Shown one piece after another: positions 4,957-6,264 of a stretch of DNA of 6,264 nt (position 1 is the stretch's first letter; each line of letters opens with the position of its first letter). Made by a program: the position numbers and the translations under genes. The stretch comes from Candidatus Helarchaeota ASGARD archaeon Hel_GB_B (lineage in GTDB: Archaea; Asgardarchaeota; Lokiarchaeia; Helarchaeales; HEL-GB-B), in the NCBI GenBank assembly GCA_005191425.1, contig SUPR01000157.1:1-6264 (forward strand). Direction: 5' to 3'. Under the pieces are notes generated by a model. The model had not been told where the DNA came from. It ran no database searches and was given only the letters and a program-made list of their open reading frames with translations.

Positions 4957-6264
4957 ATGGGATTAATAATAAGAAAAACGAAATTTAAATCTTATTTCAT
5001 AATCTTAACTTTTATTTTAATGATGTTGATAAATATAAATTCTGTAAAAGCTTATTCTTCATTTTCAGATATTGATTTTAATAAACCACATTATAATTAT
5101 ACACAAAATCCACCAGCATATTTTGTGAATATAACACCTACTTAAGATTGAAAAAAAACAGACATAGATTTTTCTGGGAGTATTGGTAAGGCAGGTGAAT
5201 TTGCGCTTGAATTATCAAAAAGTTTTAATTTGAAAGGTAAGATGCCCGGAAAACTCGCTATTGTGGAAGGGAGCTTGGATTTTGGAATTAGATTAGGATT
5301 AAGATATAATATTTCTTTTGGATATATTTTTGGGGTAGATTATTATCATTGGGCTAATAATATGGCGGTTTCATCTGGAGATAAATTCACCTATTGTACT
5401 TATATAGAGCCAGACCCAGATAAATTTAATCTTTGGGCGGACATTTCAATCGAGTCATTTCTTGAATTATGGGGTAATTTTAAGACACATCTTGATTTAA
5501 GTGGCTATGAAATAGTGGATTGGAATAAATCATGGAATTATTTTCAAACATTACCTATTAGTTTAGAGCCAAATATTAACTTAAAATCATTATTTGAGAC
5601 CGGTCTGCTTACACCCATTGGTGACCTTTATTCAACACCCAAAATAGGACTTGGTATTGAAATTCCGGGTAGACTTGAATTTGACATAGGTTTTTTAAAT
5701 TTTTATTTTGATTTTGGTGCAGGTGCATTTGCACAATTTCAAATTAAAGGGTTAATAGAAGATTTATTACAAATAGGGGGTAATTCAGGTGCTCAAATAG
5801 ATGGTAATAAGGGTCATATAACTTTGAAATATTATGATATTGGTAAAGATAATATAAAATCAATTGAAATTAGAGTACCGGCTTCATCTTTAGGCAAAAC
5901 TCTGGAAATTATTAGTAAAAATTTTAAATATAAGGTCAAGCCAGGAATTTTAATTGGGACTGAAGGACATATTAATTTAGGGTTTCATCTTCATATCCCA
6001 ACTCCGACAATACAAGTTGAGAAAACCGTGGAAGTTGTTGATGAGGTTTGTGATTGGCTTCCATTTGGGGGGTGGGCTTGTCATAAAGTAACAAAAGTTG
6101 TAAAGAAAGTGGTGGATGTTGTAGATATAATTTGTGATGATATTGACTATAACTTTGGTTGGAACTGGAATGTAGAAAAAGAATGGTGGATTCCTTTTTT
6201 TAGTGTACCTCTTTTATCTTCGTTGGCAATTGCTGTTGATAAATTTACTATTATGTCGTCAGTT
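4957..6264 (+). pseudogene. Long secreted beta-rich protein gene, interrupted by two stops at 5143 (TAA) and 5149 (TGA), 3'-truncated by the window; pseudogene or local sequence error
   Basis: Frame 1 encodes a signal peptide (MGLIIRKTKFKSYFIILTFILMMLININSVKA|Y), then ...VNITPT*D*KKTDIDFSGSIG..., then 371 stop-free codons (5152-6264, translated by hand). Sequons NYT, NIT, NIS and NKS are present. The first downstream ATG is at 5242. Confidence 0.75.

Follow-up and report, generated by a model that had tools for sequence, protein, structure and literature searches.

The gene and its motif

Here we describe the 5′ part of a gene for a giant surface protein at the end of an archaeal contig, and the short Cys-bounded aromatic motif that it encodes. 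The stretch of DNA analysed (hereafter the window) is an entire contig of 6264 bp (C67) belonging to a MAG of 3.54 Mb with 28% GC. The open reading frame that carries the motif runs off the contig end at 6264, and the remainder of the gene is absent from every other contig of the same genome. The features of the gene within the window are as follows:

4957..5142, + strand: gene start, running from the ATG through the signal peptide into the mature protein (62 codons, in the frame of the main ORF)
5143..5151, + strand: TAA-GAT-TGA, two in-frame stops at a position where orthologs have Gln-x-Trp
5152..6264, + strand: remaining open frame of 371 codons, encoding head module A and the predicted hairpin, cut by the contig end
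5995..6009, + strand: P-T-P-T turn before arm 1, unchanged in all seven Helarchaeales rows, with I or V as the first residue of the segment
6016..6048, + strand: arm 1, VEKTVEVVDEV, strand one of the predicted hairpin (model strand 286-303), net charge -3
6049..6081, + strand: C-x9-C loop, C-DWLPFGGWA-C, with the turn at P-F-G
6082..6135, + strand: arm 2, HKVTKVVKKVVDVVDII, and the third Cys, strand two of the predicted hairpin (model strand 307-324)
6136..6201, + strand: conserved, aromatic-rich stretch that follows the hairpin, DDIDYNFGWNWNVEKEWWIPFF, containing a second W-I-P-F

Elsewhere in the window, a 264-aa ORF at 1138-1932 (+) has a weak match to Uma2, a putative restriction endonuclease, that falls below the threshold (E = 2.4e-4, 21 bits versus a cut-off of 27). 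The membrane protein encoded at 3807-4502 (-) clearly belongs to the VIT1 family (vacuolar iron transporter-like; E = 2.7e-32); its gene is divergent from the surface-protein gene and is not conserved beside the orthologs. The intergenic stretch upstream of the surface-protein gene (4501-5000) is extremely AT-rich, with 13% GC versus ~28% genome-wide.

Translation of 5230-6264 (+) reproduces exactly the peptide at 6016-6135 that an earlier note, made from the sequence alone, had singled out as a Cys-closed aromatic loop held between an acidic and a basic Val-rich arm. The Cys codons lie at 6049-6051, 6079-6081 and 6133-6135, and arm 2 carries a net charge of +4 over its first 11 residues (HKVTKVVKKVV). 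Up to residue 1270 the ortholog has only five Cys, three of which sit within 29 residues (simulated P ~0.013); because of this clustering, and of the invariant Trp and Pro of the turn, we regard the motif as more than a chance pattern. A strict regular expression for it has one occurrence in the genome (7.1 million six-frame residues). The segment that follows (6136-6201), which ranks third for interfacial hydrophobicity in the intact ortholog P0012, has D, I, W, E, W, P and F as invariant columns and may pack against the hairpin tip; its W-I-P-F lies 45 residues past the first W-L-P-F, in a highly aromatic stretch of 22 residues. A twin Cx9C (CHCH) assignment was considered and rejected: the C-x9-C is single, the predicted structure is strand-turn-strand, and the spacing in most orthologs is x10.

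State of the gene in this genome

The product of 4957..5142 matches the N-terminus of the intact orthologs P0002 and P0012, with residues 5-29 forming the sole strongly hydrophobic N-terminal stretch. The frame is then closed by TAA at 5143-5145 and TGA at 5149-5151, where all orthologs have Gln and Trp, and a profile search of the genome likewise flags one TGA and one TAA within its match. These codons fit single transitions from CAA and TGG respectively. Beyond them, the product of 5152..6264 has 95% identity to residues 88-432 of P0012. Because two nonsense codons stand just past the signal peptide, the gene is probably dead in this genome, a pseudogene in this strain that is intact (2631 aa) in a 95%-identical sister strain.

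Fragments from other assemblies point the same way. One of them, P0015, is identical to the window ORF across all 341 shared residues and ends at the position of P0012 Gln568, while the next fragments, P0016 and P0017, end at the position of Gln967. The window allele thus appears to carry at least four stops in its first ~1000 codons, the two downstream breaks being read from protein fragments of assemblies that may share samples and are possibly not independent. The fragments tied to the probably decaying allele are P0015, P0016, P0017, P0011 and P0021.

Architecture of the intact protein

P0002, annotated as Candidatus Helarchaeota, is the closest relative, at 95% identity. An intact protein of 2631 aa, P0012, belongs to the same 90%-identity cluster and reveals the complete plan: a signal peptide at residues 5-29, a beta-rich N-terminal head of ~700 residues that carries no annotation, tandem internal repeats of ~95 aa, FG-GAP repeats at ~1531-1797, bacterial TSP3 repeats at ~2558-2579, and a TM helix at 2587-2616 followed by a short basic tail. 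P0004, of 2603 aa and 52% identical, follows the plan of P0012, with a TM-like segment at 2529-2562 and a basic tail. Both proteins match PF13517 and PF01839 above cut-off, and NCBI names these proteins "FG-GAP-like repeat-containing protein"; the window does not reach the FG-GAP-coding part of the gene, which falls past the end of the contig. The protein is a giant type-I anchored, integrin-alpha-like surface protein, and the motif lies in its membrane-distal head.

In its overall layout the protein resembles other giant FG-GAP surface proteins of archaea and bacteria, with which it shares the signal peptide, tandem beta-sandwich modules, FG-GAP repeats, TSP3 calcium repeats, TM segment and basic tail. 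It differs from them in the motif-bearing head of ~700 aa, which has no match in Pfam, NCBIfam or the PDB sequences and finds only sub-threshold, unnamed clusters in the ESM Atlas. A search of the literature on Helarchaeota surface proteins returned nothing useful.

The two modules of the head (A and B, residues 63-347 and 400-735 of P0002) have a weak colinear similarity. Alignment with hhalign covers 188 columns at E = 0.025, which hints at an ancient internal duplication and is not significant; with an hhalign probability of only 1.9%, the duplication is not established.

Distribution of the head domain

The head is narrowly distributed. When 1.84 billion cluster representatives were searched exhaustively with phmmer, four proteins were returned, and the head occurs in just four 50%-identity clusters. 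A profile search located the domain in four of 400 Asgard genomes, all from the order of the window itself and forming two families, and a metagenome scan added seven further loci. The earlier note had raised the question whether the motif is a mobile module. It is not: a 69-column profile of the hairpin finds only the four orthologs in the 400 Asgard genomes, together with two chance matches (one in a histidine-phosphatase-like protein, the other in a frame containing stops).

More distant homologs, P0005 and P0006, are 24-30% identical and hold the domain within other giant proteins that carry PQQ propellers, CARDB and DUF11 domains. Since the domain is placed in different giants, it has been shuffled, without the motif, among giant surface proteins. 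In P0005 (2946 aa, with PQQ-type propellers) the head-type domain lies near the C-terminus, at residues 2296-2601.

Conservation of the motif

The loop reads as follows in the proteins and loci compared:

Window and P0002: C-DWLPFGGWA-C
G003 and L012: C-DWFPWPLGWV-C
G001: C-DWLPWPIGEV-C
L011 and L014: C-DWLPWPLGYV-C
L015: C-DWLPWPLDYT-C
G004 and P0003 (66-69% identical): W-EWSPFKGWF-A, both Cys replaced (W, A)
P0004: C-DWLPWG, then a deletion that takes the second Cys

The common element is a [DE]-W-x-P-[FW] turn, of which just the Trp and Pro are invariant, and these within Helarchaeales only (seven aligned rows); the residue before the Trp is in every case Asp or Glu. Six of eight lineages retain the Cys pair, with a spacing of x10 in most orthologs and x9 in the window. 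Its joint loss in the G004/P0003 lineage, where the last of the motif Cys alone remains in G004, fits a disulfide pair. The His directly after the second Cys (His311 of the fragment model) and the third Cys are confined to genus g1, the genus of the window, and are replaced elsewhere by D/N/E and V. Loop conservation (0.75) is no higher than the domain mean (0.76), and the arms lie lower (0.65-0.67, with arm 1 at 0.65).

Conservation of the motif among homologs, on which the earlier reading depended, is therefore partial: the Trp and Pro persist across Helarchaeales, but the Cys pair, the charges and the hydrophobicity of the loop do not. Similarly, the charge complementarity of the arms is real in the window (-3 versus +4) but is found in only four of eight lineages, and a basic arm 2 is limited to genus g1 plus L011/L014.

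In the BLAST alignment of P0005 both arms are kept, but the loop between them is longer, lacks Cys and has only the D-W left, and in that of P0006 the alignment spans both arms with a short, non-aromatic turn between them. The latter alignment is uncertain because MAFFT instead places a nearby L-P-W segment of P0006 on the loop. Since the arms align in both proteins, the hairpin appears to be ancestral to the domain; judged from these alignments, the aromatic tip with its Cys staple is an elaboration specific to Helarchaeales, and the staple is dispensable.

The staple may also often stay reduced in these anaerobes, because neither VKOR nor DsbA was found in this genome. Among the four gene-carrying genomes (G000, G004, G001 and G003), none has VKOR and only G003 has DsbA above cut-off. 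Dedicated extracytoplasmic disulfide formation in this genome is accordingly doubtful.

Predicted structure

We obtained two AF2 models, resting on alignments of 6 and 14 sequences and with mean pLDDT of 44.1 and 65.7 respectively. The first covers the complete head of the G003 ortholog, which has a C-x10-C loop, and reaches a pLDDT of 55-77 across residues 40-390; in it the two strands of the motif span 318-334 and 341-357, and C332 is in register with C343. The second (me201e63f8056) covers the 371-residue fragment encoded in the window, has a pTM of 0.50 and is nearly all beta. Here the P-T-P-T sequence forms a turn at 281-285, strands 286-303 and 307-324 flank a P-F-G turn at 304-306, and C300 and C310 stand in direct cross-strand register. 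The hairpin has a pLDDT of ~60-74 and its turn falls below 50, as expected of an exposed loop. Both models contain unusually long strands, of up to ~30 residues, in successive hairpins.

The structural half of the earlier reading holds, because both models predict an antiparallel hairpin with its Cys in register, and we place moderate confidence in this prediction. The proposal that a disulfide holds the hairpin fares less evenly: the Cys are in predicted cross-strand register, but G004/P0003 lack both of them and P0004 lacks one. The description of the protein as secreted, beta-rich and archaeal is borne out by the signal peptide encoded from 4957, the near-all-strand models and the Candidatus Helarchaeota relatives.

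Foldseek searches for the fusexin and pore-former folds that the earlier note had raised gave no significant match in the PDB (both models) or in BFVD. The weak rows were mostly pore-state hairpins of MACPF/gasdermin proteins (E >= 0.006, TM <= 0.26, rmsd 11-42 A), a resemblance that, for models of this quality, is one of long strands and hairpins only. Beta pore-forming toxins (aerolysin, MACPF/CDC, gasdermin) are marked by a characteristic soluble fold with a hairpin region poised for insertion, and no aerolysin-type protein appeared among the top rows of either Foldseek or VIA-align. The best rows of VIA-align (wide) were cohesin, MG, Calx-beta, integrin thigh/calf, invasin and CLIPPER domains, with Z of 7-8.8 over 90-140 aligned residues; because this Z sits at the background level stated for the tool, even the term beta-sandwich is tentative. 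These adhesin beta-sandwiches (cohesin, macroglobulin MG, Calx-beta and others) are the best structural neighbours of the fragment model, but its strands are far longer and there is no sequence similarity to them.

Role of the hairpin

We consider it reasonably probable that the hairpin has a structural or contact role in the head of an adhesin-like giant found only in Helarchaeales. The motif would be a long hairpin of two beta-strands, close to where the head's first beta-sandwich-like module ends, with the head itself standing at the membrane-distal N-terminus of a type-I anchored, integrin-alpha-like protein of ~2600 aa that is specific to Helarchaeales. Its core would be the [DE]-W-x-P-[FW] turn, stapled in most lineages by a dispensable cross-strand Cys pair, while the Val/Thr-rich arms would be ordinary beta-strands whose charges drift among lineages. 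The turn would act as a structural cap at one pole of an elongated sheet rather than as a membrane-inserting device, and might form part of the surface through which the adhesin head contacts a ligand or partner.

The main rival is an inter-module clasp, in which the W-x-P-F turn packs on the aromatic segment behind it, which is just as conserved and contains W-W-I-P-F-F, and locks module A onto module B, so that the aromatic residues are buried rather than exposed. We think this unlikely, though well worth keeping in mind. The 22 residues that follow the hairpin are highly aromatic, with their second W-I-P-F and many invariant columns, and module B begins directly after them; the weak colinear similarity between the modules (E = 0.025 over 188 columns) is also in keeping with such a pairing, but its hhalign probability is only 1.9%. 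Module B is modelled at a pLDDT of ~30, so that no contact between the modules is seen, and the low pLDDT of the turn in the fragment model is not what a buried clasp would lead one to expect.

The earlier note had gone further and suggested a fusogen-, pore-former- or membrane-adhesin-like function, in which the disulfide-closed aromatic tip dips into a target membrane, either that of a partner cell or its own, and serves in fusion, pore formation or membrane adhesion. We find this function unsupported, with no fold match and with neither the Cys pair nor the hydrophobicity of the loop conserved, and rate its chances as slim. The predicted hairpin does have an apparently exposed aromatic turn of low pLDDT, its location in a membrane-distal head is geometrically sensible, and the weak Foldseek rows are mostly MACPF/gasdermin pore-state hairpins, but at E >= 0.006 and TM <= 0.26, and apart from one Ig-like domain at background level no fusexin or viral fusogen was matched.

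Computed Wimley-White interfacial free energies are similarly divided. At ~-3.5 kcal/mol the loop is interface-philic in the protein of the window, and it takes fifth place among the 9-mers of P0012. However, the loops of the orthologs span -5.0 to -0.3 kcal/mol (-0.3 in G001 and -0.4 in P0004), and many core strands score equally low or lower; in a protein that is rich in aromatic residues along its whole length (14.6% W+F+Y), the loop does not stand out. Membrane insertion also sits poorly with the Asp or Glu that always precedes the Trp, with a Cys pair that can be dispensed with, and with distant homologs (P0005 and P0006) in which the aromatic tip is not intact.

The proposed likeness to viral fusion loops started from the filovirus GP2 loop, whose peptide reportedly reads AWIPYFGP. 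That loop belongs to a class I helical fusion subunit, whose heptad-repeat helices then form a six-helix bundle. What the two have in common is a disulfide-delimited loop with a hydrophobic tip of the W-[IL]-P-[YF] type. The fusion loop of Ebola virus GP (residues 507-560) is a disulfide-linked element of ~50 residues (PMC4811418), whereas 9-10 residues separate the Cys here; the surroundings are all-beta in the AF2 models, with no long helices in the head, and the loop-closing Cys pair is not invariant. The analogy comes down to a pattern of 4-5 residues, and W-[LI]-P-F alone occurs six times in the long open frames of this genome.

A second comparison is with fusexins and class II fusogens (HAP2, EFF-1 and archaeal Fsx1), which have three beta domains (DI-DII-DIII) and carry the fusion loop at the tip of DII. 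A beta-rich, single-pass ectodomain with a hydrophobic loop at its tip is common to both, but the only fusexin element to appear is the Ig-like domain III of Arabidopsis HAP2, at a background-level Z of 7.7 over 99 residues and with a model of moderate quality. Fsx1 forms a trimer of defined multi-domain architecture, whose domain II bears a Ca-shaped fusion loop (PMC9259645), and HAP2 likewise has a defined multi-domain fold; features of this kind were not detected here.

A metal-binding loop, in which Cys300, Cys310, His311 and Cys328 (fragment numbering) would chelate a zinc-like ion with no disulfide, has hardly any chance of being correct and was rejected on conservation: the window and P0002 do share C-x9-C-H-x16-C and dedicated disulfide-forming enzymes were not found in this genome, but His311 and the third Cys are confined to genus g1, G004 keeps the last Cys only, and the predicted cross-strand register suits a disulfide.

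The locus thus documents a head domain that lacks annotation, borne by an integrin-like giant surface protein restricted to the Helarchaeales lineage, in a copy that is probably decaying. If it were true that the tip engages membranes or partner cells, this would bear on the Asgard cell-cell contacts invoked in models of eukaryote origin. Present evidence gives no reason to expect such engagement, and we see only a very slim chance that the hairpin tip truly contacts membranes or partner cells and that integrin-like giants of this type grip or merge membranes with a syntrophic partner.

Neighbouring genes

No conserved gene neighbourhood is shared by the window and the orthologs. Orthologs of the second family (f2), however, have the same gene of 255-267 aa directly upstream and in the same orientation, which is missing from the window. 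Its product begins MVATPKFAS, and it was located as follows:

L007, 3069-3830, - strand: f2 upstream gene
L011, 1847-2647, + strand: f2 upstream gene
L014, 1465-2262, + strand: f2 upstream gene
L015, 1851-2627, + strand: f2 upstream gene
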